DNA of 64,000 nucleotides, taken from the NCBI GenBank assembly GCA_964399075.1, contig CAYNPK010000002.1, positions 20,418 to 84,417 of the forward strand, read 5' to 3'. The notes below the pieces were generated by a model that was given only the letters and a program-made list of their open reading frames with translations, searched no databases and was not told the origin of the DNA. Both the position numbers and the translations under genes were made by a program. Numbering within the stretch: position 1 is the first letter of the stretch; every line of letters starts with the position of its first letter. Positions 2,970 to 59,233 of the stretch are shown here, in pieces. The stretch comes from an uncultured Candidatus Saccharibacteria bacterium. Lineage in GTDB: Bacteria; Patescibacteriota; Minisyncoccia; Phycocordibacterales; JACOZG01.

Positions 2970-2997
2970 TTGACAGGTGGGGTAAATTATTTATACT
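2970..2997 (+). promoter_or_regulatory. sigma70-like promoter TTGACA-16-TATACT upstream of rSAM gene
   Basis: TTGACA at 2970..2975 and TATACT at 2992..2997. Followed by SD GGGGTGA 5 nt before ATG 3061. Confidence 0.35.
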
Positions 2998-3060: not shown

Positions 3061-4122
3061 ATGGAAGATTCAATCAGTACGGCGATAGTGAAACCAACAG
3101 ATGGTTTTTGTAACTTGGCTTGTTCCTATTGCTACATGCAGAAGGTCTGTACTCGGGGAAAAATTCGGGTCATGAGTGCGCACGTTCTTGAAAACCTAAC
3201 TGATTTCTTCTGTTCCGAATTGGAAGAAATTGAGTTCATCTGGCATGGCGGTGAACCTCTTTTGGCCGGAGTGGATTTCTATCAAAAGGTAGTTCAGTGT
3301 CAGGAAAGCTGGATCGCCTCTGGTAAGAAAATCGCGAACTTCGTTCAAACCAATGGGGTTTTGTTAAATGGCAGGTGGGCGGATTTCTTTTCCCAGAACG
3401 GCTTTGTGGTTGGGGTGAGTCTCGATGGTCCGGCCCGCGTTCACGATGCGACCAGACGTTTCAAGAGTGGCGGTAGTTCCTTGGTGGCAACTATCAATGG
3501 AATAGAGGTGGCCCGAAAAGCGGGCATCTTTAATGGGGTGATTTGTTGCGTAAGTTCTCACAATTGCGAATTAGCGGAAGAGACCTTTGATTTTCTCTGT
3601 TCCCTGGGGATTAAGAGTATAAAATTTCTCAGGGTCAAGGGGGAATTTGAGGACAGCGTCAACCAAGGTCAATATGTTCGTTTTCTTACGGCCGTCTTAA
3701 GAAGGTGGCTGGAGGTCGATGATCCGGAGATTGAAATTAGAGACATCAAAAGTCTGATAGACATAGCCTTGGGGGGCAATTTCAGAGAATGTGTCTACAT
3801 GGGAAGGTGTGATAAATTCGTTACCGTTTACGGAGACGGATCTATTTACGCCTGTGATAATTTGCCCAAGGTTGATCGATTCTGCTTCGGCAATGTGGTC
3901 CAGACGAGAAAGGAGGTGTTGCTTGGACCAAAACTCCAAAACTTTCTTGCGATGATTGATGAACGTAAGAAGAGTTGCTCGTCTTGTTTTTGGTTTGAGA
4001 CCTGTCGCGGCGGTTGCGCCTATCGGTACCTACAAGAAGAAAAGGAGGAAAATCAATGTGAAGACTTGAAAGATTTGTTTGGCACTGTTCGTGATGTACT
4101 TAAAAGGCACCAGATGGTCTAG
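3061..4122 (+). CDS. radical SAM / SPASM-domain peptide maturase (rSAM no.1; AnSME/ranthipeptide-maturase-like)
   Basis: CNLACSYC (C-x3-C-x2-C) and GGEPLL. C-terminal auxiliary-cluster Cys motif CSSCFWFETCRGGCAYRY. Confidence 0.85.
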   Translation: MEDSISTAIVKPTDGFCNLACSYCYMQKVCTRGKIRVMSAHVLENLTDFFCSELEEIEFIWHGGEPLLAGVDFYQKVVQCQESWIASGKKIANFVQTNGVLLNGRWADFFSQNGFVVGVSLDGPARVHDATRRFKSGGSSLVATINGIEVARKAGIFNGVICCVSSHNCELAEETFDFLCSLGIKSIKFLRVKGEFEDSVNQGQYVRFLTAVLRRWLEVDDPEIEIRDIKSLIDIALGGNFRECVYMGRCDKFVTVYGDGSIYACDNLPKVDRFCFGNVVQTRKEVLLGPKLQNFLAMIDERKKSCSSCFWFETCRGGCAYRYLQEEKEENQCEDLKDLFGTVRDVLKRHQMV

Positions 4123-4157: not shown

Positions 4158-4298
4158 ATGAAAAAACGTGAATCTAAACTGAAAGTCCCCCGTGTCTTGC
4201 AGAAGGCTCGGCAAGTTGCCAAGTCTTTTGCGTCGAATTCGAGTTCGGGTTATACCAAGGGGCCTTGGGATCAGGGTCACTGGGCAAACCGAAAGTAA
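4158..4298 (+). CDS. 46-aa basic peptide (K/R-rich leader-like N-terminus, C-terminal GYTKGPWDQGHW); candidate rSAM substrate
   Basis: ATG 35 nt after the rSAM stop, with GAGAAGGA RBS 9 nt upstream. Sequence MKKRESKLKVPRVLQKARQVAKSFASNSSSGYTKGPWDQGHWANRK. An intrinsic terminator follows. Not in ORF track (<60 aa). Confidence 0.4.
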   Translation: MKKRESKLKVPRVLQKARQVAKSFASNSSSGYTKGPWDQGHWANRK

Positions 4299-4336
4299 GA
4301 GCGCGTATGATTATCGCGCAGGAAACTCAAACCAAA

Positions 4337-4370
4337 CGAGTAGTCTATCGGACTACTCGTTTTTATTTTT
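4337..4370 (+). terminator. rho-independent terminator (CGAGTAGTC-loop-GACTACTCG + T-run)
   Basis: Perfect 9-bp stem followed by TTTTTATTTTT. Closes the rSAM no.1 peptide operon and is convergent with the 4363..5247 gene. Confidence 0.5.
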
Positions 4371-5247
4371 GAATGTGTCCTTTTAGAACTTCGATTAGCG
4401 ATTCGAGGTAGGCATTATCAAGAGGAATTTTACCTTCCGTATACTTCTTAGACCAACCATACATGTGATAAGCACATATTTTTCTTGTTTGTGAAAAATC
4501 TAAAATGTTTTCAGTTTTTGCCAATCGTTCGTTTGTAATTTTTACCACCTCTATGCCAAGATATTTCTCTGCTAAATATCCTTCTGGTATAAATGAACTG
4601 ATTATTAGTTCTTCTAAAACAAGATAAGTGTTTTTTGTGCCATAGTTAACTAGATTAATTATCTCTGAATTTTTTTCTGTTACTTTTTTTATTTTTTCCC
4701 AAAGTTGATGATTTTTCTTCAATATCAAATGGAAAAATTCATGAGCCAATATCCCAATAGAAAATTTATCAGGAATAATGTTGTCAACTGGGCACTCCAA
4801 AACTATACTACTTCTATCCGGAGACCAAGAAAACCAAGCCGACAAATTATCATAAGGACTAATCACCAGATTAATTTGAATATCTTCGATCGAGAGATTA
4901 TCCATGCCCGCAAGCGAAAGAGCATCAGCAATCACCAGGTCCAATGTCTGTAAATTATCTTGATAGTATTTGGAAAGTAGTTCGAGTTTTTTTAGAGCAG
5001 TAAGCCAAAATTTATCAAACTCTTGCTCAAAAGGAGCGATGGCTTTTCTAAATTCGGATAACTTATCTTGCCCAACCATCTCTTCAAGGCTAGACCAAAA
5101 AGTCTCGTCATTTTCGGTAGCCAGAAAGAGTTCAATATTTTGAACATCCTCTGTTTTTAATAGATCTTTGATTGTTTGTTCCTTTTTAATATCAACCAAA
5201 AAGTGCAAAAAGTTGACATTTTTTGAAATACTAAAATTTAATGACAT
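4363..5247 (-). CDS. HExxH metallopeptidase-like protein, family B (ILAHEFFHLILKKNH)
   Basis: 294-aa ORF with a single HEXXH. The 5' UTR contains GGAGGA and derives from the N-terminal coding sequence of the 8545..9363-type gene. Confidence 0.55.
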   Translation of the reverse strand: MSLNFSISKNVNFLHFLVDIKKEQTIKDLLKTEDVQNIELFLATENDETFWSSLEEMVGQDKLSEFRKAIAPFEQEFDKFWLTALKKLELLSKYYQDNLQTLDLVIADALSLAGMDNLSIEDIQINLVISPYDNLSAWFSWSPDRSSIVLECPVDNIIPDKFSIGILAHEFFHLILKKNHQLWEKIKKVTEKNSEIINLVNYGTKNTYLVLEELIISSFIPEGYLAEKYLGIEVVKITNERLAKTENILDFSQTRKICAYHMYGWSKKYTEGKIPLDNAYLESLIEVLKGHIQK

Positions 5248-5266
5248 TTTTTATTCAGAATATCCT

Positions 5267-5340
5267 CCAGTCTGGGAACTGTCTTAGGATTTTACCATAG
5301 AATGGCTAAAATTAGAAGGGGTGGTTATTGAATTATATAA
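5267..5340 (-). promoter_or_regulatory. repeated promoter/5'-leader module (copy 2) with extended -10 TATGGTAAAAT
   Basis: Core ATGGCTAAAATTAGAAGGGGTGGTTATTGAATTATATAA at 5302..5340. On the minus strand it reads CCCCTTCTAATTTTAGCCATTCTATGGTAAAAT, then a 45-nt leader with GGAGGA before ATG 5247. Confidence 0.4.
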
Positions 5341-5387
5341 CACATGATAGTTTACACAACTTCTCACGCTTTTTTATTTTTGCCACA

Positions 5388-6038
5388 CTAGTTATTAATA
5401 TATCTAAGGTATTCCAAGCTTGTTTTTACAAAATTTACAACATTTGGTTCTTTTGTCCAAATCCTTTTTATTTCTTCCAACTTATTTTTCAGATCAGGGT
5501 AAAATAGAAGTTCTTCTGCTCCGATAGATTTTTTAATTGATGGAAGATTAAGAAAAATCACATTAAATATTTCGGATAATTCCCACAAATTATTGTCATT
5601 CTCAATTTTTAAATCACCACAAAAATCATAAAAGGCAAAGTGGGTCAGTTCGTGGGCGATAACTTCTTTTCTCATGTCATGCGAACGTTTGTAATAAACT
5701 TGGAAACTTTTATTCTCTAGATAGCGTGGATTGCAATTAAAGATAGACAAGTAACAAGTATAATTTTTTTTGCTGTAATCTTGGCCGAAATATTTCTGTA
5801 ATTCTAAAAATAAAGATTCTTTTATTTCTCTAAAACATAGCTCGGTATCCTCAAGAGTATTTTTCAAACTATCTTGATTCGCAGTATAAAAATTATCTAT
5901 ATATTCAATATAGTTTTCTTTAGTTATGTCCGGATGATCATCACGTATCTTCTTACCAAAATCAGCGCCACCAACAATAGCATCACAAAAAGCCAAATAT
6001 ACTTCTTTATCTAATTGTTTATTGAGCAGGGTGTTCAT
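5388..6038 (-). CDS. HExxH metallopeptidase-like protein, family A paralog (IAHELTHFAFYDF)
   Basis: Homologous to 2217..2945. Its 3' end (5388..5485) is duplicated at 12788..12950. Confidence 0.6.
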   Translation of the reverse strand: MNTLLNKQLDKEVYLAFCDAIVGGADFGKKIRDDHPDITKENYIEYIDNFYTANQDSLKNTLEDTELCFREIKESLFLELQKYFGQDYSKKNYTCYLSIFNCNPRYLENKSFQVYYKRSHDMRKEVIAHELTHFAFYDFCGDLKIENDNNLWELSEIFNVIFLNLPSIKKSIGAEELLFYPDLKNKLEEIKRIWTKEPNVVNFVKTSLEYLRYINN

Positions 6039-6792
6039 TGCTCAAGTATCTTTTCCATGCTTTTTCCGCTTCGGTCGGGCTTATGCCGTATATTTCTTGA
6101 AAAATATCACTATTCTCATTTTTTGTTTTGAATCTATTGGTATTCTGATAAAGAGTTTTAAATTTTTCTTTACCATATTGTTCAATCAAGAATTTTGTAA
6201 ACGACCCAACAAAACAGTAGTAATAAAGAGCGTGATCGTCATCCAGCTCTTTCCATTTTGCGTGATCCATCATTGAATCTACTGGGGGCAGGAGCCCTTT
6301 ATTTGAAGCCTCATAAGCGAGTTTGTCGTGGTCTTCTCCATGCCAGCCGTGGCCAACCATATATTCTGCCAATCCTTCTTGAAAAAAAGCAATTGAAAGT
6401 CCCCACGGTAAGGATAATAAATGTGTATCTTCATGTTCTCCAATTGGTTTAATGTCTTTTGTATACAAAACATGCACAATAAAATCTTTCCAAATGGCTT
6501 GAGCATACCAATCATCACCCATTAATTTTTTCTTTGTTTTCAGATCAGGATAAAAATAATAAGTGATTTTTCTTTCTGGAGATAGAATTTCTAAAAATTC
6601 AATGATTTTTTTGAAAGCTCTTCCCTGTGTTTCTGAAATTTTTGTAATTTCTTTTTCCGCGATTGTTTTAGGTAAATAGTAAAAAATATAGTGTTCAGTT
6701 TCATGTTTGAGCCAAGAGATGTCATTTTTGAAATCCTCTTTGTACGTTGGGAGATTTTGGGTAATTTCAGGTGTGCTCATAATATTAAACAT
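6019..6792 (-). CDS. HEDTH-motif metallopeptidase-like protein (family H)
   Basis: 257-aa ORF with GEHEDTHLLSL followed by EGLAEYMVGHGWHGEDHD. Overlaps 5388..6038 by 20 nt, so probably operonic. Confidence 0.5.
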   Translation of the reverse strand: MFNIMSTPEITQNLPTYKEDFKNDISWLKHETEHYIFYYLPKTIAEKEITKISETQGRAFKKIIEFLEILSPERKITYYFYPDLKTKKKLMGDDWYAQAIWKDFIVHVLYTKDIKPIGEHEDTHLLSLPWGLSIAFFQEGLAEYMVGHGWHGEDHDKLAYEASNKGLLPPVDSMMDHAKWKELDDDHALYYYCFVGSFTKFLIEQYGKEKFKTLYQNTNRFKTKNENSDIFQEIYGISPTEAEKAWKRYLSNEHPAQ

Positions 6793-6795
6793 TAT

Positions 6796-6829
6796 AACAA
6801 AAAATAGGCTGCTTTTCCAGGCAGCCTAT
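6796..6829 (-). terminator. rho-independent terminator after rSAM no.2
   Basis: ATAGGCTGC-loop-GCAGCCTAT hairpin followed by TTTTTTG on the minus strand. Confidence 0.45.
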
Positions 6830-6832
6830 TGG

Positions 6833-8143
6833 TTAGGAGTTGTACTCAAGAAACAACAAACCTTCGTTTAGAGTGGCGATTAGCTTGCGTTGACAGAACC
6901 TCTTTTCGAATCCTTTCTCTCCGTTTTCCACGATCGAGTCATGAATGCACCCACCGCCACATATTGGCAAATAGGGACATTTCTCTTCTACACACTTGTC
7001 TGTTCGAGAAAAATTCTCAAAACGAACATCTTGTGTATATGAGGTGGGAAAATCGGAAACGTGACCGAAATCGAAAGCGGGCCGTCCAACCGTACAGAAG
7101 CATTTTTGAAGTGCTCCATTCGGCTGAAGTACTGCCGAATGCTTTGCGATTGCCACGCACCATGGCCCCACAAGAAACTCGTCAGGTACAGCAAACCCAC
7201 ATTCTTTAGCGACACGCCAAGCAGCTACAGCTTTTTCGGCGGTCATTACTTCGGCCAAGGCTTTCGTGGTAGTGCCAAGAGATGGAACAACAAGACCTAG
7301 ACTTAAATGAATCTTGTTACCATAGCCAAGCTTTGCCAAGAAGCGTATAAGATCTGGCAACGATTCAGCGGTTTCTGTATCGAGAGAGAGTCTCAAGTTG
7401 ATCTTTGGCACGTATCCACCATCGAGCAACATTCTCACATTCGTGATAATCCTATCGAAAGTGGGTTGTTTGTCGTGGCCAACTCTACGGGTGTCATGCA
7501 ATTCTCTCGGACCGTCCAGGGTAATTTGCACTCGCCGTAAATCGTATCGTTTGAGTGCGATTGCCGTATTAGCGTCGAGAAGCAAGCCGTTAGTAGTGAT
7601 CTCGGTCCAATATTCTATTCCTTTCTTTTCAGTAAGCAACTTGATTCTTGTTAGGGCTTCTTTCGCCAAGTGTTTCACCAGAAGAGGTTCTCCTCCAAAT
7701 AAAACGCACTTCAGGGAAGCAACCTCTGGATTGGCTTCAAGGTATTGGTCAAGCCAGTGAACAGACTGACAAAGAACCGCCTCCGTCATCAATCCCAGTC
7801 GTCTTACTCCACGCTCGAAGCAATAGTGACAGTTAAGTTGACACTTCATGGTTGGCAGGAGATGCAATGTGAAGAGTTTTGCCTGTTCATTCCTTGTGTG
7901 GCGAAAGAAGTTACGATACTCGCGGAACTCGTCTTTGTCTTCTGGAACAACAAATCCATTATTGCCAGAAAGAGTTTCGATGGAATCATGGCTAGGCAAT
8001 GTTTGATCATGAAGCCACTTATCCAAAGATTCAATTGTTTTGCCATCAAGCATCGCGACTGCCCCAGTGAGATAATTCTTCACCAGAACATTCCCATCGG
8101 CAAAAGGGTAACGAACCGTAAATGCACTCCATTTGTACCTCAT
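6833..8143 (-). CDS. radical SAM / SPASM-domain peptide maturase (rSAM no.2)
   Basis: CQLNCHYC, FGGEPLL, and C-terminal CVEEKCPYLPICGGGCIHDS. Start is probably ATG 8143 (MRYKWSAF); the track uses GTG 8206. Confidence 0.85.
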   Translation of the reverse strand: MRYKWSAFTVRYPFADGNVLVKNYLTGAVAMLDGKTIESLDKWLHDQTLPSHDSIETLSGNNGFVVPEDKDEFREYRNFFRHTRNEQAKLFTLHLLPTMKCQLNCHYCFERGVRRLGLMTEAVLCQSVHWLDQYLEANPEVASLKCVLFGGEPLLVKHLAKEALTRIKLLTEKKGIEYWTEITTNGLLLDANTAIALKRYDLRRVQITLDGPRELHDTRRVGHDKQPTFDRIITNVRMLLDGGYVPKINLRLSLDTETAESLPDLIRFLAKLGYGNKIHLSLGLVVPSLGTTTKALAEVMTAEKAVAAWRVAKECGFAVPDEFLVGPWCVAIAKHSAVLQPNGALQKCFCTVGRPAFDFGHVSDFPTSYTQDVRFENFSRTDKCVEEKCPYLPICGGGCIHDSIVENGEKGFEKRFCQRKLIATLNEGLLFLEYNS

Positions 8144-8215
8144 GGTAGGACACATCCTTTCTAAAAAAATGTCCCGCAAGCTACACGCCTGCAGGACATC
8201 ATGCACTGCGACTCA

Positions 8216-8356
8216 CTAGTAGCCACAAGTGTCTTTGCCCAACCTGACCGGAGTGCGAAGGTCTTGGTTACCTGCTTTGAGCAGGATAACACCAGAGCTT
8301 TTCACACTAGCCGATCTTACAGGCCGAGTTGCCGGTTTGTCGTTCTTGGTAACCAT
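8216..8356 (-). CDS. 46-aa basic peptide upstream of rSAM no.2; candidate precursor
   Basis: ATG at 8356 with AGGAGG 8 nt upstream. Sequence MVTKNDKPATRPVRSASVKSSGVILLKAGNQDLRTPVRLGKDTCGY. Stop lies about 10 nt before the rSAM ORF. Same length and character as 4158..4298. Confidence 0.4.
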   Translation of the reverse strand: MVTKNDKPATRPVRSASVKSSGVILLKAGNQDLRTPVRLGKDTCGY

Positions 8357-8544
8357 ATGGCTTTCCTCCTTTCTTGCCTATTACCCTCGACTGCTCTTTG
8401 GGTTGAGAATCCAACACGGATTCTCATTTAACCTCATTGACCAAAAGAGTAATGTAAGGAAATAGGACTTGGGGTTTGATGTCGAAGATCTAAAATAGCC
8501 AACAACATCTTATCACTATTTTCCCTATTTTGTCAATAAAACAC

Positions 8545-9363
8545 TCACCCCATCTTTTCTTCCAGCAGCTTCTTTGTTTCATTGGGGTGACACATCCAGA
8601 AGTCTTCTCCCTCTATGTCGGTTGGCTCGAAGGCGATGATAAGCGGTTTGTGACCCAGTGTTTTATAGGCCTCAATAAAAGCTGGAAGAAACACTTCTCT
8701 GGTGAAGGAGATTTCTTTGTGATCAAGCATAAAGTTTTCAAACAAGACGCCGTTTCTAATGAATAATGATAGGAAGGGAGTATAGTATTCATTGGCGGTC
8801 ACGCCATGATTTTTAAACCACTTAGACGCATCGTAAAAAGAATCTCTGCGAAGTAATTTGTAAGTTTTTCTAAAAAGTCCGTGATGGAATCCTACCAGAG
8901 ATTGGTTCCATAAAGTTTTAACTTTTGAAATCTTTTTTCCTACAAATTCATTAAATTCAATGGCGTTTATTCTTTCTATTTTCATCCCCCCCTTCTTCCC
9001 TCTGCCTTGGAAAAAACTCAACTTGCCCAGGGAGTGTTTCCAGTCGTTGTTAGAAGTAAATTTATCATGCCGATATTCCCAAAACAGGAGCTTAGTATCT
9101 TCCAACGCATCAGCAATGCTGACAAATCTTCGGATTTCGTAATTGGGAGTAATCACCTGACGGAAAATTACCGCCCGCGGGTCTTTCTTGAAGGGCTCGG
9201 GGATGTCGTTCTTGAGAATTTTCAGCACTTTTTTCTCAAGTTCTTTGTCTTTTCTCCGCTCTTTTAACTCCCCAAGAGCCACCGACAGGGGAGTATAAAT
9301 AGTTTCTTCAAACAACTTCCTATTCGAGATGATTTTCGGAATATCCTCCAGTCTGGGAACCAT
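8545..9363 (-). CDS. hypothetical protein, family C (no recognisable motif)
   Basis: 272-aa ORF. Its 3'-terminal sequence recurs as truncated remnants at 15030..15112 and 16628..16660. Confidence 0.5.
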   Translation of the reverse strand: MVPRLEDIPKIISNRKLFEETIYTPLSVALGELKERRKDKELEKKVLKILKNDIPEPFKKDPRAVIFRQVITPNYEIRRFVSIADALEDTKLLFWEYRHDKFTSNNDWKHSLGKLSFFQGRGKKGGMKIERINAIEFNEFVGKKISKVKTLWNQSLVGFHHGLFRKTYKLLRRDSFYDASKWFKNHGVTANEYYTPFLSLFIRNGVLFENFMLDHKEISFTREVFLPAFIEAYKTLGHKPLIIAFEPTDIEGEDFWMCHPNETKKLLEEKMG

Positions 9364-9404
9364 CTCAAGATTCTACCACAGAATGGCTAAAATTAGAAGG
9401 GGTG
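9364..9404 (-). promoter_or_regulatory. repeated promoter module (copy 3), extended -10 TGGTAGAAT only 6 nt from ATG (leaderless arrangement)
   Basis: Minus strand reads CCCCTTCTAATTTTAGCCATTCTGTGGTAGAAT cttgag ATG(9363). Confidence 0.4.
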
Positions 9405-9441: not shown

Positions 9442-10056
9442 ATGAATAAAAATATTGAAATAGAAGTACGTGGCCTGTTGACGAAAGAAAAATTCGATAA
9501 TTTAGTATGTTTATTTGAGGCGAAAGCAAAAAAGACGGCAGAGAAAAATAGAGTTTTGATTGATTACTCCACTTTTTTGGAAGGCGGAGTAAAAAATAGA
9601 AATAAGGATATACGATTGCGAGTAACTAATGGGACTCCAGAAATTATCGTCAAGATTGGTGAATGGGGAGGATCTGAACGACGGAAAGAGCTCTCAGCTT
9701 TTACTAGCCCTGGCGAGTTTGACACCTTAGTTGAGATTTTTGGTGAACTCGGATTTTGTAAAGGAATGTTGTGTGTAAGAAAAAGCAAAGTGTACGAATA
9801 CAGAGATATCGAGTTTGCATTAGTAGAAGTACCAGGACATAGTTATTATTATGAGGCAGAAAAAATGGTGCACGAAGAAGAAGACGCTGAAAAAATAATT
9901 GAAGAAATTAAAAATGTTTGCAAAGAGCTTAATCTTGAAGTTCTTGATAAAAAACATTTTTTTGAGTACATAGAAAAATTAAATAAAGAATCCAATGAGG
10001 TTTTTGAGTACAAAAACCATACTTCAAATTATTTTAAAAATAGATTTAATCTATAA
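9442..10056 (+). CDS. CYTH-domain protein (triphosphate tunnel metalloenzyme family)
   Basis: N-terminal IEIEVRGLL (ExExK-type motif). Paralog of 20073..20681. Confidence 0.6.
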   Translation: MNKNIEIEVRGLLTKEKFDNLVCLFEAKAKKTAEKNRVLIDYSTFLEGGVKNRNKDIRLRVTNGTPEIIVKIGEWGGSERRKELSAFTSPGEFDTLVEIFGELGFCKGMLCVRKSKVYEYRDIEFALVEVPGHSYYYEAEKMVHEEEDAEKIIEEIKNVCKELNLEVLDKKHFFEYIEKLNKESNEVFEYKNHTSNYFKNRFNL

Positions 10057-10126
10057 AGAAATACGAAAATAAAAACGAGCGACGGGTTTTGAACCTGCCG
10101 CTCGTTGGGAGTGAACCATTAGGATG

Positions 10127-10372
10127 TCATCCATGATGACCTCTCACAAAAATTTTCCCTCGGATAATTTTGTGTGCGGGTCTGTTATGGATAACGGCGT
10201 GACGGGCAAACTCTTGACCGCAAAAAGGGCACTTCAGATCGCCGTTGGTGTTATCCAGTATTATCATATCGGAATAACACTTAATGAGTGTTCCTCCACC
10301 CTCTTTTTTGTAGCGGTAAAGCAGAGTCATGCACTTAGCGCAATGTATTGCGATTGTGTATGTTTTTCTCAT
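10127..10372 (-). CDS. small zinc-ribbon protein
   Basis: 81-aa ORF with CAKC...CPFC pairs. Lies 10 nt downstream of the PreA-like gene. Confidence 0.4.
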   Translation of the reverse strand: MRKTYTIAIHCAKCMTLLYRYKKEGGGTLIKCYSDMIILDNTNGDLKCPFCGQEFARHAVIHNRPAHKIIRGKIFVRGHHG

Positions 10373-10381
10373 GTAAATCTC

Positions 10382-11530
10382 CTAGAATGACACCTTGATA
10401 GCGCCAAATTTTGGAGGGCATACTCCAACGCAGGCGTTGCACGAAATGCAATTGTCGGCGATAACCGCCAACGGATTTTCGTCTGCACGACGAACTATTG
10501 AGAGGGCATCAAAGGCGCAGGCACGGACGCAGATTCCGCAACCCGTACACTTCTCTTCGATCACAACAGGACGAGGTGACGAAAACTGGTGTTCACTCGT
10601 CTTGTTGAGTGTAAGTCCGACTAGCTCTTCGACCGAGGCATACTTTGGGTTCTCTGCGAGAAACCTCCGCAAGTCAGCCGTAACCCGCCTGAAGACCGTA
10701 GGACCCTTCAGTGCTGGTGCGGTGTAAAGTTGCACTGCATTTGCACCTGCCATGAGCATCTGAATCACATCGTCTGCGGTGAAGATTCCACCGCAACCGA
10801 CGACTGGGATCTCGAGTTTTTCTGAAAGTTGACGTACACACCATAGAGCAATGGGGAAAATTGCTTTTCCCGTTACTCCACCACCTCCGCCTTTGATTCC
10901 AAGTTTTGGTTTGGCGGTTTTGGTGTCAATCAACATTCCAGGGCCTATGCTGTTTGTGCAAACGATAGCATCAGCTCCCAGTTCTTCAGCTCGTTGCGCC
11001 ATCGGGATCAGCAGGTTCGAGTACGACAGCTTGATCCAGATCGGTGTCGTCGTAACATCACGCACTTTTTTCATCAGTTGTTCTAGATGTAGTGCGTCGA
11101 CATTCAGATTCCCGTGTAGTGCTCCGGAATGTGAACAGGAGATGTTGATCTCGTAAGCATCAACATCTATCTCGTCGAATGTCTGGATCAGATAGCAACA
11201 GCTATCCATGTCGCGCCCAGAAAGCGAGATGATGATCGGGCAACCAGTTTCCTTGACTTGGCGTACTCCATGTTCCTGCCAATCCGTCCACGGCTTTTCG
11301 TTTCCCCACTCGCAGTTAAGCATGTTGTCTTGACCGAAAACTGCGTAGCGTGGAGCTGTGATTCTTGAACGTTCCGCTGGAACATGTTGCTTGAGCGATC
11401 GGGTCACCACGCCAGCACATCCGTATGGTTGAGCCTTCAGGAAAAACTTCGATGTTTCGGTGATGTACCCTGAGGCCAGCAACAACGGAGTCCGTAATTT
11501 CACTTTGCCGACTTGTGCATTGAGAGACAT
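10382..11530 (-). CDS. PreA-like dihydroorotate/dihydropyrimidine dehydrogenase-family flavoprotein with C-terminal 2x[4Fe-4S] ferredoxin domain
   Basis: DHOD-like core (GGGGGVTGKAIFPIALWCV) plus CTGCGICVRACAF and CISCNACVGVCPP. Best start is ATG 11530, 6 nt after GGAGG. Confidence 0.7.
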   Translation of the reverse strand: MSLNAQVGKVKLRTPLLLASGYITETSKFFLKAQPYGCAGVVTRSLKQHVPAERSRITAPRYAVFGQDNMLNCEWGNEKPWTDWQEHGVRQVKETGCPIIISLSGRDMDSCCYLIQTFDEIDVDAYEINISCSHSGALHGNLNVDALHLEQLMKKVRDVTTTPIWIKLSYSNLLIPMAQRAEELGADAIVCTNSIGPGMLIDTKTAKPKLGIKGGGGGVTGKAIFPIALWCVRQLSEKLEIPVVGCGGIFTADDVIQMLMAGANAVQLYTAPALKGPTVFRRVTADLRRFLAENPKYASVEELVGLTLNKTSEHQFSSPRPVVIEEKCTGCGICVRACAFDALSIVRRADENPLAVIADNCISCNACVGVCPPKFGAIKVSF

Positions 11531-12102
11531 GGCCATCCTCCTTTCTTTGTTAAGTGTGATGCCAAAACTTCGAGCACCGCATCCAGAACTCGAGATTCTC
11601 CAGCTTCAGTAACTTCAATTACTGAAGTAAATAGCGAACTTCGCAGCAGGATTGTGTTGATTTCGCTTTCGGCTGTTGTAACTCTTTTTTCTATCTCTGC
11701 CAAACTTTCGGTCTTTCGTACGACAGAAAGTCTTTTGTGGAGCAGTGAGAGGTCAAAAGTCACAAGACCGATAGTGAAAATCTCGGGGTTAATTCTGAGC
11801 GCTTCCAACATGTTGTCTGGATGCACCTCAGTCAGTTTGATGTCTGAACTTGGGAGCAGGTCTTCTTTTCTCAGGCCATAACGATGGCCAAAGAGGTCTT
11901 GGACCAAGACAAGCTCGCTAGAGTCAGTCATGCGATTGAATTCAAGAACTGGAACATGGATTCTGTTTCCGCCCTGCTCGTTTGGACGCAGAGGACGGGT
12001 TGTAAACCATGCCAATTCCTGGATGTGCGGATGAAGTTGTAGCAGTCGTTCCTTAATGAAGCCCTTGCCAATTCCAGAGGGACCGCTAAGAGAGATAATC
12101 AT
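11500..12102 (-). CDS. guanylate kinase-like P-loop protein
   Basis: ISLSGPSGIGKG Walker A and WFTTRPLRPNE guanylate-kinase signature. 3' end overlaps the PreA-like gene start. Confidence 0.6.
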   Translation of the reverse strand: MIISLSGPSGIGKGFIKERLLQLHPHIQELAWFTTRPLRPNEQGGNRIHVPVLEFNRMTDSSELVLVQDLFGHRYGLRKEDLLPSSDIKLTEVHPDNMLEALRINPEIFTIGLVTFDLSLLHKRLSVVRKTESLAEIEKRVTTAESEINTILLRSSLFTSVIEVTEAGESRVLDAVLEVLASHLTKKGGWPCLSMHKSAK

Positions 12103-12204: not shown

Positions 12205-12779
12205 CTAGAAATTACTAGCTTTTTCGCCCAGCCTCTCTAAGGCTAAGACTTCATATCTCGGAATTTTGTAACCGCCTCTCTTTTTAATTTCTGCTAGTAA
12301 CAGCTTCATGTAATGCTGAATCGCTCCGAATTTTTCGTATTTTTTATCTGTTTCTGAGGAACACTAAGAATATCTCCCAGAACCTTTCGGCAGTTCTCTG
12401 ATCCACATTCACATTTCATTTTCCATTCTGTTGGAGCCATTGTCATGGAGTAGTCGTAGGTTATTTCTTCTCCCGTATCTATATCCCTAAGCGCAAAAAG
12501 TTCACTCTTTTTTCTTATACCTCCGCTCGGGTCACAGCTGTGATTAAAAGTGCGAGACAGTTCATCAAGATCAATATAGGTTTGTCTGCCAATCTGAAAT
12601 GGGTCATCGATATTTTCTTTGCCGGAAATGACACTGTCTACAAGATTTTTTAGAGTCAATTTTTTCCCATCAAGAACGTGGATAATTTCACCCTTCTTTA
12701 TGTCCTGACCAGCAAAAACTCCCTTACCATACTTGTCGGTATTCTTAACAATTAATTTTTTGTCTGAAAATGAAGTCAT
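12205..12779 (-). pseudogene. SET-domain protein paralog carrying a -1/+1 frameshift in an A6 run (pseudogene or sequencing error)
   Basis: Residues 1-157 (MTSFSDKKLIVKNTDKYGKGVFAG...NHSCDPSG...KCECGSENC) are in one frame to 12306. The C-terminal MKLLLAEIKKRGGYKIPRYEVLALERLGEKASNF continues in another frame to stop at 12205. The switch is at the homopolymer near 12343..12349. Confidence 0.5.
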
Positions 12780-12787
12780 GGTGGGGG

Positions 12788-12950
12788 GGTTATTGAATTA
12801 TATAACACATGATAGTTTACACAACTTCTCACGCTTTTTTATTTTTGCCACACTAGTTATTAATAGATCTAAGGTACTCCAAGCTTGTTTTTACAAAATT
12901 TACAACATTTGGTTCTTTTGTCCAAATCTTTTTTATTTCTTCCACAAACT
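12788..12950. repeat. near-identical copy (~165 nt) of 5321..5485: promoter-module core plus the 3' coding end of a family-A HExxH gene (gene remnant)
   Basis: ggttattgaattatataacacatgatagtttacacaacttctcacgc...ttggttcttttgtccaaatc is shared with few mismatches. No intact ORF here. Confidence 0.6.
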
Positions 12951-12995
12951 TTTTTAAATACGGGTTCATGTTTCTATTATATGATATGTGTAGCC

Positions 12996-13622
12996 CTAGC
13001 TATTTCTTATTATCTTTTCTAAGTTAGGGTAATGATCCTCAAATGCCTTTTTGATTTTCTCTGTCTCATCTATCCCAATAGGTATCTTTTGCCACCTATG
13101 AAGTTCTGGAAAAGCTTTATCAAACAATAATTCAACTAAAGTCTCCTTCTGCCATTGTCCTACTTTGTATTTATCTATCAAAGGTTGGATGTGGAGATGG
13201 ATAGTTTCGTGCAAGAGGGTGTTGATAATGCCCCCCGTGTTTTTCTTAGAAATATTTATGATTACTCCATTCGGCGGTGAATAACTGCCACCGATGCCAT
13301 ATTTTGTTAAAACTATTTCTATTTCAGGGATCGGTTCTAATTTCAATTCTTCAATTAGTTTTAATAATCTGCTTTTTTGAGATTCTATCCCTGCTCTTGC
13401 TTCTTGCTCTATGTTTAAAAAAGTTCCCGCCGAATATTCATTATCTATCCTTTTTTCTAAAGCCTCTTCGGTATCGTTTTCTAAATTTTCCATATCCATT
13501 CCTGTCGGGAAAGTTAGATTATCCAATTTGTAGCCATTAGCTTTAAACCAGTCCAACCTCTTGATTGTCTGGAGGATTCTCGTTTTCTCTAATTTTGGTG
13601 AATATTTAAAGCTGAAGTTCAT
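12996..13622 (-). CDS. HExxH metallopeptidase-like protein, family D (LLHETIHLHIQP)
   Basis: 208-aa ORF with a single HEXXH. Confidence 0.55.
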   Translation of the reverse strand: MNFSFKYSPKLEKTRILQTIKRLDWFKANGYKLDNLTFPTGMDMENLENDTEEALEKRIDNEYSAGTFLNIEQEARAGIESQKSRLLKLIEELKLEPIPEIEIVLTKYGIGGSYSPPNGVIINISKKNTGGIINTLLHETIHLHIQPLIDKYKVGQWQKETLVELLFDKAFPELHRWQKIPIGIDETEKIKKAFEDHYPNLEKIIRNS

Positions 13623-13654
13623 GGTTATGTATTAATAATAGACAAAAAAATGGC

Positions 13655-13690
13655 TCCGGACAAATAATGTTCGGAGCCATCAGGTTATTA
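13655..13690 (-). terminator. rho-independent terminator closing rSAM no.3 - peptide operon
   Basis: ATGGCTCCG-loop-CGGAGCCAT perfect 9-bp stem with TTTTTTT on the minus strand. Confidence 0.5.
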
Positions 13691-13700
13691 CCGCTGTGCC

Positions 13701-13859
13701 TCATAGGCAATCAGGGCAATCGCAATCGGGAGGATTGGGACAATCGTCCGGGTCCGGTTGGCAGTACCCATCGCTCGACAAAGACCGAGCGCGTAGGTTT
13801 TGCACGGGTAAATCTCTTGAGATACCCGGCGTCGTCATCATTTCCGCTAGTGCTTCCAT
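13701..13859 (-). CDS. 52-aa Asp/Pro/Cys-rich peptide, candidate ranthipeptide-like RiPP precursor
   Basis: ATG 13859 preceded by GGAGAAAGGAGAG, 27 nt after the rSAM no.3 stop. Sequence MEALAEMMTTPGISRDLPVQNLRARSLSSDGYCQPDPDDCPNPPDCDCPDCL. GC-rich. Below the ORF-track size cutoff. Confidence 0.5.
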   Translation of the reverse strand: MEALAEMMTTPGISRDLPVQNLRARSLSSDGYCQPDPDDCPNPPDCDCPDCL

Positions 13860-13886: not shown

Positions 13887-14915
13887 TTACCGTCCAGGTA
13901 CTAGGGTTTGAGCGTCGAAGACTGTCCACATCAGAGGACATCCTCCTCCGCAGTAATCCTTATGCTCACAATCGATGCACCTGTTGGATGGGTATGAGTT
14001 GATCCGGTCGTGATTGGTCGACACCTCCTCACTGTTCAATAGCCTTAGGAGTGAGTTTGCGTCATGAAAATCTTGATCGATTTCTCCTGTTGGAAATTCT
14101 GACATTCCATTACACGCAAGGAGGTTGCCAGCTGGGTCGAATATTACTCCCGTTCTGTTTTGGAATTGACATCCCGTGCAGAGTTGTCGCCTCTCCATGA
14201 GTAGACTAATAAAATCCCTTGGCCACACACAAAGTGGTGTTTTGAGAGAGAGGACCATCCTCCCATCCATCAGTTCGTGAAGCTTCTGGTATTGCGACAC
14301 GATATCTGTGACCAAATCAGCTATTGGGATCATTCCAGTTGTGCTAGGCCCCCGTTTGCCGACTGAAGGAGTGCAAGGACTAATGCTCACGCTATTTGCT
14401 CCACACTCTCGCGCAAAGGTCACAAGTTGGAGAAGTTTACCTCGAACGAAAGAGTTGTAGACCAGGCTAGCCCCGCATCCAAATTCTGAGGCTAATCGAG
14501 ATAGTCCAAGTCTCAATTGTTGCCAGTTGGATATGTGTGCCAGACTTTTACCTGACTCCTCATCGAAAGCTTTGATGGAGGGACTTACCCGATCATTTGG
14601 TGATTTTAGATATCCTGACCAGAAAAGATCGTCAGAAAATCTCTCTCCGTTTGTGACGATTGTGGTCTTGATTCCACAAGCTCTTGACTCCCTGTTGAAT
14701 CTTAAAAGAGGTTCCCAGAGCGTGGGTTCCCCCCCGATCAGGTCAATCTGCTTTATCTCCAAGTCTTTAATTATTGACAGAAGCCTTAGAGATAGTGGTA
14801 GGCTCATTGTTTTGCCACCGTCAAAACCTTGGTTTCTTGCATAACACCATTTACAACGGAAGTTGCACGACAAGTTTGTTGTAATCCAGGCAACCTTTGG
14901 TTTGGCTGTAAGCAT
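13887..14915 (-). CDS. radical SAM / SPASM-domain peptide maturase (rSAM no.3)
   Basis: CNFRCKWC, IGGEPTL, and C-terminal CIDCEHKDYCGGGCPLMW. RBS GGGAGGA 8 nt before ATG 14915. Confidence 0.85.
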   Translation of the reverse strand: MLTAKPKVAWITTNLSCNFRCKWCYARNQGFDGGKTMSLPLSLRLLSIIKDLEIKQIDLIGGEPTLWEPLLRFNRESRACGIKTTIVTNGERFSDDLFWSGYLKSPNDRVSPSIKAFDEESGKSLAHISNWQQLRLGLSRLASEFGCGASLVYNSFVRGKLLQLVTFARECGANSVSISPCTPSVGKRGPSTTGMIPIADLVTDIVSQYQKLHELMDGRMVLSLKTPLCVWPRDFISLLMERRQLCTGCQFQNRTGVIFDPAGNLLACNGMSEFPTGEIDQDFHDANSLLRLLNSEEVSTNHDRINSYPSNRCIDCEHKDYCGGGCPLMWTVFDAQTLVPGR

Positions 14916-15029
14916 TTGAGTTTCCTCCCAATATCAAAGAACAAAATGAGATCGGGACCATCCTGAATCTCGTCTAAGATTAAGACTACGTCTGCTATTT
15001 TATTTTGTCAAGATTATGTATCCGTCTAC

Positions 15030-15112
15030 CCCATCTTTTCTTCCAACAGCTTCTTAGTTTCATTGGGATGGAACATCCAGAAGCCCTCTCCCTCTATGTC
15101 GGTTGGGTAGAA
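15030..15112. repeat. truncated remnant of the 3' end of a family-C gene (cf. 8548..8640)
   Basis: ccccatcttttcttccaacagcttcttagtttcattggg...ccagaagccctctccctctatgtcggttgg is about 90% identical to the 8545..9363 C-terminal coding sequence. Confidence 0.5.
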
Positions 15113-16627: not shown

Positions 16628-16715
16628 CACCTCATCTTTTCTTCCACAAACTTCTTAGTTTCATTCTCAAGATTCTACCACAGAATAGCTAAAATTAGAA
16701 GGGGGAGTGCAAAGA
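16628..16715 (-). promoter_or_regulatory. promoter module copy 5 (TGTGGTAGAAT) fused directly to a 3'-terminal remnant of a family-C gene
   Basis: ctcaagattctaccacagaatagctaaaattagaaggggg next to catcttttcttccacaaacttcttagtttcatt. Confidence 0.4.
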
Positions 16716-16888: not shown

Positions 16889-18199
16889 ATGAAATTATCG
16901 CGTTTTAATGTTTGGTCGCTTTGTGACCATGGTCTCATTATCTTTAACACTCTTACTTGCGCCTTGTCAGTTTTCGAAGGGGATTACATTGAAAAGGTGT
17001 TCCGGGCTCTCAAGAATGAGGACATTGACAGTATTCCAGGAGAATTTTTGCTGGCAATGTCTGAGGATGGTTATTTAGTTGAGGACGAACTCGATGAACT
17101 TGGATTTATCAGAGATGCTTGCTGTGAAAGACGGTCTAAAACGGACGAGTACTCCCTGTGTGTGATTCTTACAATGGATTGCAACTTGGATTGCGCCTAT
17201 TGCTTCCAGAAGCATTCCAAAGAAAATCTATCACAGGTTGAAGTTGCCAAGGTTTTGAACATGTTTCGAGGGATAGCAACCAAGGCAAAGAGGATTGAAG
17301 TTGACTGGTTTGGTGGCGAGCCACTTCGCTCGTTCAGTGTTCTGAAATCCATGAATGATCAGCTTATGGCTATTGCTCAAGCTTCGGGTGTAGATTATCA
17401 GCATTCAATTACTACTAATGGTTACTACCTAAGCCATAAAGTAATCACCTATCTAGCCAAAACTCCTCTCTCGATTCTCACGATCACTCTGGATGGTCCC
17501 GCAGAAACTCACGATCGTAGTCGGCCAACAAAAAGTGGTCAGCCAACATTCCTTAAGATTCTCGAGAATGTTCAGATGGCGATTAAGGCTGGTCTGAATA
17601 TTTCTATTCGGGTTAACATTACTACTCTGAATGTTGATCGGGTTCATGAGTTGTATGATGTCTTGGAGTCGCGTGGTCTCAAGAACAAAGTTGAGGTTAA
17701 TCTCCAGGCAGTGGTTTCTTCTGACGTTAGATCGTGTGAGGAATACTGTCTTTCTGGACACGACTTCGCTTGTCGATCAATGAGGATATACAAGTGGGCA
17801 GCACAAAAAGGATGGGTGGTTTTTCCTCCCACGGAAAAATTGAGGGCTTTGGGATTTTGTGTTGGAGAGTACCCGAATCGCTTCATCACTGATCTCCATG
17901 GGAACTTGTATCGATGTAGTCAAATGACGGACGACGAGATGGTCGGCGCCCTAGATGACGATGGCTCAATCATTCTTCGGGAGACGGAGAATGAACTTTG
18001 GATTAACAAAGATCCTCTCAAGTTTCCTGAATGTCAAGGATGCTCAATCTTACCCATTTGCATGGGCGGTTGTAATCTTAAGCGGCGCGCCGGCAAAAAG
18101 TCAGTAGACTACTGTCTCGACTGGAAACATGATTTACCCGGCTTGCTTGAGGTCTTAGTGCTGAATGAGAGAAATATCGCCCTCTCCCAGCTGGATTGA
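16889..18199 (+). CDS. radical SAM / SPASM-domain peptide maturase (rSAM no.4)
   Basis: CNLDCAYC, FGGEPL, and C-terminal CQGCSILPICMGGCNLKR. RBS AAGGAAGAAG before ATG. Confidence 0.85.
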   Translation: MKLSRFNVWSLCDHGLIIFNTLTCALSVFEGDYIEKVFRALKNEDIDSIPGEFLLAMSEDGYLVEDELDELGFIRDACCERRSKTDEYSLCVILTMDCNLDCAYCFQKHSKENLSQVEVAKVLNMFRGIATKAKRIEVDWFGGEPLRSFSVLKSMNDQLMAIAQASGVDYQHSITTNGYYLSHKVITYLAKTPLSILTITLDGPAETHDRSRPTKSGQPTFLKILENVQMAIKAGLNISIRVNITTLNVDRVHELYDVLESRGLKNKVEVNLQAVVSSDVRSCEEYCLSGHDFACRSMRIYKWAAQKGWVVFPPTEKLRALGFCVGEYPNRFITDLHGNLYRCSQMTDDEMVGALDDDGSIILRETENELWINKDPLKFPECQGCSILPICMGGCNLKRRAGKKSVDYCLDWKHDLPGLLEVLVLNERNIALSQLD

Positions 18200-18250: not shown

Positions 18251-18331
18251 ATGAAGCGCGTTAAAAAAGCACGGGCGACAAAAGTAGTTACGCCACGTGC
18301 GACGTTCTCATCCTGCTGCAGAAACAAGTGA
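18251..18331 (+). CDS. 26-aa basic peptide with C-terminal SSCC; candidate precursor
   Basis: GGAAAGGAGGTG 8 nt before ATG 18251. Sequence MKRVKKARATKVVTPRATFSSCCRNK. A strong terminator follows. Confidence 0.4.
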   Translation: MKRVKKARATKVVTPRATFSSCCRNK

Positions 18332-18347
18332 TTTTGCAGCGCAGCCA

Positions 18348-18382
18348 AGAGGCACAAGCTAGAAAGCTTGTGCCTCTTTTTC
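18348..18382. terminator. rho-independent terminator (13-bp perfect stem AGAGGCACAAGCT/AGCTTGTGCCTCT, loop AGAA, TTTTTC)
   Basis: Closes rSAM no.4 and the peptide gene. Also sits at the 3' end of the convergent gene 18359..18808. Confidence 0.6.
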
Positions 18383-18808
18383 ATGTTTCTCGTCTCTTCT
18401 TCCCAAGAACGCCGCTACGACATTGTCGACAAATTCTTCAAGTTTGTTTAAGTAAAGTTCGTGATTTTGTCCGAATTTTTTATGATTTTCCAATATTAAA
18501 TCCTCACTGAATTTGTCGTAGTCATTTATTAAAACATGGACTAATTCGTGAACTAAGGTATGTTCTTCGTCACACCAAGGATTCCACGTTAATTGTATGG
18601 TGGCGATTTTCTTTTGAGAATTAGCTTCGAAGCCGCCACTTTGTCGCCATCCATTTTCACGCCAAAAATCCACAATCTTGAGATCTAATTTCCAATCGGC
18701 CATGCCCATTTTCTCCTGCCACTTCCTGAGCAATTTTTCCAGTTCGGGCACAGCTAAACCCCTTTTCTTGTTTTCAAATCCGTAAAATATTTTACGATCT
18801 CCTTCCAT
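18359..18808 (-). CDS. HExxH metallopeptidase-like protein, family E (HTLVHELVHVLIND; SprT/DUF45-like)
   Basis: 149-aa ORF. Confidence 0.55.
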   Translation of the reverse strand: MEGDRKIFYGFENKKRGLAVPELEKLLRKWQEKMGMADWKLDLKIVDFWRENGWRQSGGFEANSQKKIATIQLTWNPWCDEEHTLVHELVHVLINDYDKFSEDLILENHKKFGQNHELYLNKLEEFVDNVVAAFLGRRDEKHEKEAQAF

Positions 18809-59159: not shown

Positions 59160-59233
59160 TGCGCGTGCTTGGATTCGAACCAAGGGCCGCCGAGGTATAA
59201 GCTCGGTGCTCTAACCAGCTGAGCTACACGCGC
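59160..59233 (-). tRNA. tRNA-Ile, anticodon UAU (74 nt, no encoded CCA)
   Basis: GCGCGTG acceptor, GTAGCTCAGCTGGTTAGAGC D-arm, anticodon loop CTTATAC, TTCGAAT T-loop. All stems pair. Confidence 0.7.

Follow-up and report, generated by a model that had tools for sequence, protein, structure and literature searches.

Four probable radical-SAM peptide cassettes with mutually unrelated small genes in an uncultured Saccharibacteria bacterium

We analysed a 64,000-nucleotide stretch of contig CAYNPK010000002.1 (positions 20,418 to 84,417 of the forward strand; assembly GCA_964399075.1) from an uncultured Candidatus Saccharibacteria bacterium. This whole stretch is called the window here, and its own coordinates are used throughout. 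Between 3 and 19 kb the window carries four small open reading frames (ORFs), p1 to p4, each neighbouring a gene for an enzyme with a radical S-adenosylmethionine (rSAM) domain and a SPASM-type C-terminus (rSAM1 to rSAM4) and each accompanied by a protein with an HExxH motif. The peptide gene lies downstream of its enzyme in the case of rSAM1, rSAM3 and rSAM4, and upstream in the case of rSAM2. Every one of the four ORFs is preceded by a Shine-Dalgarno sequence at proper spacing, terminator hairpins follow p1, p3 and p4, and p1, p2 and p4 were called by gene callers. An earlier note on this DNA had placed p1, p2 and p3 where we find them; p4 was absent from it. We read the region as four separate cassettes for RiPPs (peptides synthesized by ribosomes and modified after translation), each made up of a short precursor gene, its own rSAM/SPASM maturase and an HExxH protein, and put the probability of this reading at about 0.8. 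Homologues of the enzymes are annotated as belonging to Paceibacterota, Parcubacteria, Kaiserbacteria and similar groups, which places the window in a genome of the Patescibacteria.

The first cassette begins with a promoter-like site (2970..2997, +; TTGACA-16-TATACT, 11/12 matches), which is a consensus match only. It is followed by rSAM1 (3061..4122, +), a radical-SAM/SPASM protein of 353 aa that has no N-terminal RiPP recognition element (RRE) and that its family and PDB matches place in the clade of anaerobic sulfatase-maturating enzymes (anSMEs), DynA and cyclophane synthases. The p1 gene (4158..4298, +) starts with ATG 36 nt past the rSAM1 stop and encodes the 46-aa putative precursor MKKRESKLKVPRVLQKARQVAKSFASNSSSGYTKGPWDQGHWANRK, with the leader motif VPRVLQKAR and the C-terminal core GPWDQGHWANRK. 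A bidirectional intrinsic-terminator hairpin with a 13-bp stem and a T-run (4334..4362, assigned to neither strand) closes both the rSAM1-p1 unit and the convergent gene of the HExxH protein H294. The arrangement recurs widely. A metagenome scan returned 448 loci with rSAM1-related enzymes; 80 were kept, 60 of them with enough downstream sequence, and in 50 of these 60 a p1-type ORF on the same strand starts within 200 nt downstream of the enzyme, at a spacing of 0-65 nt. Two further loci have such an ORF upstream. For the rSAM1 orthologues with 77% and 71% identity, the downstream ORFs read ...VPHVLQKARQ...GPWDQGHWANRR and ...IPRVLQKARE...GPWDQGHWANRK, respectively. The 48 distinct members of the family share a leader of the type [VI]P[KR]VLLQAKKEA and a core PWD[KQ]GHWANRK at the very C-terminus, in front of which there are often one to three repeats of the WDKAWEK type. 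With p1 alone as the query, a phmmer search over 1.84 billion representative proteins retrieved 18 short peptides, and the 17 that we read had the same architecture.

The second cassette lies on the opposite strand. Downstream of another promoter-like site (8507..8536, -; TTGACA-18-TAAGAT with TG), likewise known from its consensus match only, p2 (8216..8356, -) begins with ATG after an AGGAGG Shine-Dalgarno sequence and encodes the 46-aa putative precursor MVTKNDKPATRPVRSASVKSSGVILLKAGNQDLRTPVRLGKDTCGY with the putative leader motif ILLKAG and the core GKDTCGY. An attenuator-like hairpin of 14 pairs with a T-run (8168..8200, -) separates the p2 stop from the start of rSAM2 (6833..8143, -), which the gene caller placed at Met22 of a GTG-initiated ORF. 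The rSAM2 product of 436 aa combines RRE, radical-SAM and SPASM domains and is CteB-like, as judged by NCBIfam matches and a structural model. A scan limited to two sequence patterns and to a single genome per species, across 185,579 species of bacteria and archaea, confirmed 47 loci of the rSAM2 family; among Patescibacteria genomes the system is sporadic, not universal. The Patescibacteria loci have an ORF ending in GKD[GTSAQ]CGY 40-100 nt upstream of the enzyme, and p2 lies upstream of the enzyme in 34 of the 37 rSAM2-family loci whose flanks were long enough to judge, at enzyme identities as low as 35%. The ORFs that precede the rSAM2 orthologues with 75% and 63% identity end in ...LLKAGSQDFRTPVRLGKDTCGY and ...LLETGDKQFRSPARLGLDGCGY. 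The N-terminus differs among the 33 distinct members of the p2 family, which carry a hydrophobic [VI]x[VIL][LV]K.G motif, usually RF, and a terminal K-D-x-C-G-Y; Asp and Cys are invariant in the core, and Cys is present in all 33 members. In two members, whose ends are CCVYNR and CCGRRT, the terminal Tyr is dispensable. The more distant Bacteroidales relatives of rSAM2 and rSAM4 (L043-L053, 24-29% identity) were set aside: these enzymes lie behind an ORF of about 450 aa, with no p2-like ORF, and appear to represent a different system.

In the third cassette, rSAM4 (16889..18199, +), a 436-aa RRE-rSAM-SPASM protein of the Clo7bot/TIGR04463 type that is 26% identical to rSAM2, is followed after 52 nt by p3 (18251..18331, +). 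The latter has an AAGGAGG Shine-Dalgarno sequence 8 nt upstream and encodes the 26-aa putative precursor MKRVKKARATKVVTPRATFSSCCRNK; an intrinsic terminator with a 14-bp stem and a T-run (18347..18378, +) comes next. Behind four rSAM4 orthologues there are likewise 26-aa ORFs, which read M[KR]R[IV]K...TPRA...CCRGS (L139, L140, L141 and, frameshifted, L016). The family pattern is MKR[IV]K ... TPRA ... CCR[GN][SK] up to the stop codon, with CC invariant. At L016 (2861-2979) a frameshift, due either to misassembly or to decay into a pseudogene, splits the p3 orthologue into MRRVKKRR with a stop and then KTVVTPRSTLSECCRGS. At L142 (4369-4410) a relative of rSAM4 at 47% identity is followed by the 13-aa peptide MPDSSTSKCCRGR, a CCRGR variant with its own Shine-Dalgarno sequence and almost no leader. 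This variant would fit the very short Cys-rich partner of TIGR04463.

The fourth cassette is organized around rSAM3 (13887..14915, -), a shorter radical-SAM/SPASM protein of 342 aa whose sequence is only distantly related to any named family (SPASM model TIGR04085, 36 bits against a cut-off of 27). Its peptide gene, p4 (13701..13859, -), starts 28 nt past the rSAM3 stop, has the Shine-Dalgarno sequence GAAAGGAG and encodes the 52-aa putative precursor MEALAEMMTTPGISRDLPVQNLRARSLSSDGYCQPDPDDCPNPPDCDCPDCL with a Cys/Asp/Pro-rich end, CQPDPDDCPNPPDCDCPDCL; a hairpin with a T7 run follows at about 13644-13678. The single rSAM3 orthologue found (L019, 44% identity) has the p4 orthologue MELLLEIPVTGIQPGYRPSGLSTASRDGQCDPAPDDCANPDDCDCDCAPPH, ending in ...DGQCDPAPDDCANPDDCDCDCAPPH, and then a homologue of the HExxH protein H208. 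The two peptides are far more similar than shuffled sequences (z = 11.5).

All four small ORFs are conserved, translated-looking genes kept beside orthologues of their own enzyme. Variability at codon positions 1/2/3 is 0.18/0.13/0.52 in the p1 core and 0.20/0.18/0.56 in the p2 core, so that the third position varies about 3-4 times as much as the other two; this excess means that selection acts on the protein. In the same vein, synonymous codon differences outnumber nonsynonymous ones in both families (4839 versus 2597 in p1; 1157 versus 663 in p2). Orthologous peptide pairs stand well clear of shuffled sequences (z = 11-15). Moreover, the peptides diverge in step with their enzymes (Mantel r of 0.65 in p1 and 0.30 in p2; none of 2000 permutations was as high). 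What we find are short genes, kept beside a peptide-modifying enzyme and, in p1 and p2, under protein-level selection, as is typical of RiPP precursors. It is most likely that each small ORF encodes the substrate peptide of the adjoining radical-SAM enzyme. Scans of the peptides against Pfam and NCBIfam at E-values up to 1-10 gave no match.

The third component of each cassette is an HExxH protein. H294 (4363..5247, -), with HEFFH and a conserved downstream Glu, is a putative Zn-peptidase and the convergent partner of the p1 cassette; a homologue adjoins about 58 loci of the rSAM1 family, with H169, E170, H173 and E212 invariant. M257 (6019..6792, -), gluzincin-like and with an invariant HEDTH ... 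E139, lies directly 3' of rSAM2 and recurs in 34 loci of the rSAM2 family outside the organism of the window, with an invariant GEHEDTH...EGLAEY. The p2 operon ends with a second such gene, H216 (5388..6038, -; HELTH), which is also found in L004, L015 and L016 and is paralogous to the ORF at 2082-2945. H208 (12996..13622, -; HETIH) is located downstream of p4, and its L019 homologue (10695-11345) occupies the same position. H149 (18359..18808, -; HELVH) is the convergent partner of the p3 cassette and has homologues beside rSAM4 orthologues in L139 and L016. From their sequence motifs, these proteins are probably leader peptidases. In the scheme that we propose, the N-terminal leader of each precursor would dock on the enzyme, a 5'-deoxyadenosyl radical would cross-link the invariant C-terminal core, and the HExxH partner would then remove the leader.

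As for the chemistry of the p1 cassette, the relatives of rSAM1 and the composition of the p1 core point in the same direction. After anSME, the families best matched by rSAM1 are DynA, DarW, GrrM/OscB, AmcB, YhhB, FxsB and DarE, and its nearest solved relatives are anSME (4K36, 6e-44) and the triceptide synthase ChlB (9GM3, 1.7e-21), which was crystallised with the leader of its substrate. Aromatic-x-x units are the substrate pattern that defines triceptides, in which three-residue cyclophanes are formed (PMC11499958). Such units abound in p1-family cores (WDK, WEK, HWA and WAN), the p1 of the window having YTK, WDQ, HWA and WAN. At L097 (4114-4308) a divergent p1-family precursor, ...GKGKEWNKGKEWTKSWDNKGPWSQQWKNKN, lacks the GHWANRK end and is rich in W-x-K/W-x-Q units; that it keeps these units supports W-x-[KQ] as the modified unit. 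The p1 leader would dock directly on the RRE-less rSAM1, as in ChlB, and the product would carry three-residue cyclophanes, each joining an aromatic carbon to the C-beta of residue 3. From the aromatic-x-x strings and the relatives of rSAM1, a peptide with two or three cyclophane rings is predicted by analogy. The layout W-x-x ... H-x-x ... R loosely recalls dynobactin, a parallel that we assume speculatively.

Among known systems, triceptides, darobactin and dynobactin come closest to the p1 cassette. Their synthases (XyeB, GrrM/OscB, FxsB, YhhB, HaaB, HtkB and ChlB; DarE and DynA) are, like rSAM1, RRE-less, anSME-like rSAM/SPASM proteins, and the homology of rSAM1 to DynA reaches 1.9e-61, with further matches to GrrM/OscB, AmcB, YhhB, FxsB, XyeB and ChlB. 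In addition, p1 and its 47 relatives carry WDK, WEK, WDQ, HWA, WAN or YTK behind a conserved leader, and repeats are common. However, the p1 core PWD[KQ]GHWANRK is almost invariant instead of variable, the host is a bacterium of the candidate phyla radiation (CPR), and the fixed partner is a 290-aa HExxH protein encoded on the opposite strand. Moreover, rSAM1 scores below every cut-off and thus outside every curated cyclophane-synthase family: DynA 208 bits (cut-off 450), GrrM/OscB 153 (310), AmcB 149 (425), YhhB 137 (445), FxsB 128 (370) and XyeB 103 (450). The p1 cyclophanes are a prediction drawn from these better-known systems.

For p2, p3 and p4, the likeliest reaction, again predicted by analogy, is thioether formation from an invariant Cys. 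This prediction follows from the superposition of rSAM2 on CteB and from the best NCBIfam matches of rSAM2 and rSAM4, which are maturases of Cys-rich peptides: TIGR04463, Clo7bot, CefB, geopeptide and PapB. The rSAM2 model (predicted local distance difference test score, pLDDT, 89) forms a sheet plus helices in its N-terminal domain (residues 3-87) and can be laid over CteB in full length (5WGG, TM-score 0.74), with TigE, SuiB and anSME as the next matches; eight C-terminal Cys are conserved in the family. The RRE, the rSAM core and the full SPASM domain of a CteB-like maturase are thus all in place. The potential Cys donor is there as well, as an invariant Cys in 33 of 33 p2-family members and as CC in p3. 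The p2 leader would dock on the N-terminal RRE domain of rSAM2 and the p3 leader on that of rSAM4. The CCR core of p3 would acquire a Cys thioether, and the p4 stretch CxPxPDDCxNPxDCDC may undergo the same reaction. As the Asp two positions upstream is the only other invariant residue of p2, it is the likeliest partner of the invariant Cys in the predicted cross-link. PapB makes bonds from Cys to the C-beta of Asp, with a C-x3-D spacing in its substrate; the Asp of p2 lies two residues before the Cys, a spacing from which a smaller ring would result.

Sactipeptide and ranthipeptide maturases (CteB/SCIFF, PapB/freyrasin, Clo7bot, CefB and TIGR04463) share the RRE-rSAM-SPASM architecture with rSAM2 and rSAM4, and their likeness extends to the invariant Cys of the p2 and p3 cores, for which an S-C thioether is predicted. 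On the other hand, the scores of rSAM2 and rSAM4 are only about one third of the cut-offs. At 175 bits for TIGR04463 (cut-off 525), 132 for Clo7bot (600), 153 for CefB (600), 105 for PapB (340) and 76 for SCIFF (425), rSAM2 belongs to none of these equivalogs, and rSAM4 falls short of TIGR04463 (227; 525) and Clo7bot (228; 600). The p2 family also differs in having a single Cys within its K-D-x-C-G-Y end, not a multi-Cys core, and in having the gluzincin-like M257 as a fixed partner.

Several observations weigh against our reading of the region as four RiPP cassettes. All four enzymes lie under the curated cut-off of every named NCBIfam family, so no equivalog backs a specific reaction; every cross-link is assigned by analogy, and the chemistry is one that we infer. 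The best single match of rSAM1 is an anaerobic sulfatase maturase and not a peptide cyclophane synthase. The Mantel correlation would be expected for any co-inherited neighbouring genes. The support is narrow for p4 (a single orthologue) and p3 (five loci). The HExxH partners match peptidase models with weak E-values (6.5e-6 to 7e-3): Peptidase_MA_2 is hit by 8 of 21 M257 members and DUF5700 by 2 of 23 H294 members in Pfam, the alignments of M257 and H294 found no match when searched as profiles against the PDB, and a single-sequence AlphaFold model of M257 (pLDDT 38) is unusable. Finally, we identified no exporter in the cassettes, and near-invariant cores together with a variable p2 N-terminus set these peptides apart from most antibiotic RiPPs and bring them closer to precursors from which cofactors are made.

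These last points lead to the alternative that survives best, in which the invariant C-terminal core is cut out to yield a small molecule, cofactor or signal derived from the peptide, and not an antibiotic or bacteriocin. PQQ (pyrroloquinoline quinone) and mycofactocin are both cut from the C-terminal core of their precursor, and the mycofactocin precursor MftA ends in C-G-V-Y. The p2 core GKDxCGY is near-invariant down to 35% enzyme identity while the N-terminus is free to vary, it sits at the extreme C-terminus and its C-G-Y end resembles that of MftA, a dedicated peptidase-like gene always follows the enzyme, and the cassettes show no immunity gene either. The parallel with MftA/MftC and PqqA/PqqE thus includes a short precursor with an invariant extreme C-terminus (here D-G-C-G-Y), an rSAM/SPASM enzyme with a peptidase gene after it, and a core more conserved than the leader. 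However, p2 ends in Gly-Tyr instead of Val-Tyr, which makes the Val-Tyr cross-link of MftC impossible as such, and its RRE is fused within rSAM2, not separate. The 25 best of the 64 NCBIfam matches of rSAM2 include neither MftC nor PqqE; its top families are instead maturases of Cys-rich RiPPs, and no MftB/D/E/F-like or PqqB/C-like genes were found in the neighbourhood. The CCVYNR and CCGRRT ends and the sporadic occurrence of the system (47 loci in the scan) speak against a cofactor as well. On balance we consider this alternative unlikely. Yet near-invariant cores (GKDGCGY; PWDKGHWANRK) across deep divergence, combined with the free N-terminus of p2, leave a cofactor- or signal-like role a small probability. 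With the same reserve, the products might be lineage-specific small molecules, either new cofactors or host-interaction signals of ultra-small episymbionts, arising from uncharacterised rSAM chemistry on D-x-C-G-Y.

A different explanation would make p2 not a substrate but a regulatory leader ORF whose translation controls the hairpin and T-run before rSAM2, with the other ORFs being regulatory or fortuitous. Indeed, a short ORF followed by a terminator-like hairpin right before the enzyme gene recurs in 17 of the 33 p2-family loci, although the stem sequences are not conserved. Loci with the hairpin and T-run include L004, L006, L010, L011 and L013-L016, with a spacer of 40-100 nt. However, no such hairpin was found in the other 16 loci, and the last seven residues of p2 are conserved as amino acids with synonymous changes predominating, whereas attenuation needs neither this nor an RRE. 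Furthermore, p1, p3 and p4 lie downstream of their own enzymes and so cannot act as leader ORFs. We therefore regard regulation as very improbable. Under the reading of p2 as a precursor, the hairpin could be a partial terminator that would leave the precursor transcript in excess of the enzyme transcript. A hairpin that sets a high precursor-to-enzyme transcript ratio is an arrangement familiar from other RiPP operons.

It is just as hard to see in rSAM1 no more than a common anSME, with p1 as an unrelated small protein next to it by chance. True, rSAM1 finds its best family and PDB matches in anSME, with which it shares its length and the full SPASM Cys pattern. Its TIGR03942 score of 243.4 bits, however, is well below the cut-off of 349.45, and no sulfatase was found among the scanned neighbouring genes of rSAM1 in the window. 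Its dedicated partner is instead a W-rich peptide, encoded within 0-65 nt of the enzyme in 50 of 60 loci and sharing its terminator, with cores that bear the aromatic-x-x units of cyclophane substrates.

The relationship among the peptides themselves had been the starting point of the earlier note, which described p1 and p2 as equally long, leader-like peptides next to rSAM paralogs and took them, with p3, for a diverging precursor family travelling with the enzymes. Part of this picture holds: the peptides are precursor-like, and each is kept with the orthologues of its own enzyme, in step with that enzyme's divergence. They are, however, separate families. Against 5000 composition-preserving shuffles, BLOSUM62 local and global alignments of p1, p2 and p3 score at shuffle level (p 0.07-0.79; z = -0.1 for p1/p2, 1.8 for p1/p3 and -0.7 for p2/p3). 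In profile comparisons with families of 48 (p1), 33 (p2), 3 and 2 sequences, hhalign gave probabilities of 0.0-0.2% (P-values 0.27-0.99), and the family hidden Markov models scored at most 3.3 bits on the other peptides in hmmsearch as opposed to 56-65 bits on their own member. The p1-p4 families are mutually unrelated, with no detectable homology, and the apparent likeness of p1, p2 and p3 is one of shared composition only. The supposed common P-R-V/R-P-V element belongs to the conserved leader motif [VI]P[KR]VL in p1 and to a non-conserved stretch in p2, and the matching 46-aa length is a coincidence, since lengths vary widely within each family (about 35-67 aa for p1 and from about 32 aa upward for p2, in trimmed alignments with N-termini capped at 62 residues). 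Of the two outcomes that the note named as refuting its view, the first, similarity no better than in shuffled peptides, is what we observe, whereas the second, absence from orthologous loci, is contradicted by the conservation of the peptides there, in favour of their being real. Nor are the enzymes close paralogs: they are distant relatives only, with rSAM1 and rSAM3 in subfamilies other than those of rSAM2 and rSAM4. An origin of p1, p2 and p3 through duplication of a single ancestral precursor gene along with its rSAM paralogue, and later divergence, is scarcely credible given the unrelated profiles, the differing gene order and enzymes both with and without an RRE, even though all three peptides are short, basic and conserved towards the C-terminus beside rSAM/SPASM genes, p1 and p3 have a weak K-x-[VT]-P-R stretch in common, and duplicated pieces do occur in the island.

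Such pieces make the island that carries the cassettes a mosaic: 8547-8631 is repeated at 15028-15112, 5318-5500 at 12783-12965 and 1418-1856 at 12349-12787. The 3' end of a 272-aa gene (8545-9363) is copied upstream of rSAM3, and that of H216 is present as a 38-aa remnant beside the second of two SET-domain genes (1276-2133 and 12306-12779), which are 68% identical. A 70-nt element that looks like a promoter or 5' region copied between cassettes occurs three times (5254-5323, 9335-9404 and 16637-16706; 90% and 60% identity), its positions including one immediately upstream of H294 and one across the start of the 272-aa gene. Between the p2 and p4 cassettes, the 9442-12102 segment encodes a CYTH-domain protein, an 81-aa zinc-ribbon protein, a guanylate-kinase-like protein and a dihydroorotate-dehydrogenase-like flavoprotein fused to a 2x[4Fe-4S] ferredoxin domain; these genes are not conserved beside the other loci examined. 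Elsewhere in the window, ARAGORN identified a tRNA-Ile with the anticodon TAT (59160-59233, -). Such a tRNA is uncommon, since in most bacteria AUA is decoded through a modified CAU anticodon.

The kind of system described here, an rSAM/SPASM-modified RiPP with a leader peptidase, is already well known. The peptide families and the enzyme subfamilies, on the other hand, are not in curated libraries, and the fixed HExxH partners are without clear family assignment. Searches of the literature on Patescibacteria/CPR RiPPs, triceptides, ranthipeptides and the motifs GHWANR, KDGCGY and WDKGHW returned nothing relevant to these peptides, but did not cover the largest triceptide catalogue, where p1 may be listed. 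A triceptide landscape published in JACS in 2022 reportedly comprises roughly 3900 pathways. CPR/Patescibacteria genomes are about 1 Mb in size. One survey recorded zero biosynthetic clusters among its Patescibacteria genomes. Here, one CPR genome devotes about 16 kb to what are probably four radical-SAM peptide cassettes, and two of the peptide families, p1 and p2, recur with nearly invariant cores in dozens of CPR genomes and metagenome contigs, the latter from groundwater and sediment samples. These families provide pairs of an enzyme and its predicted substrate on which new cyclophane or thioether chemistry can be tested, and their products are candidates for the molecules that episymbionts may use on their hosts or competitors.

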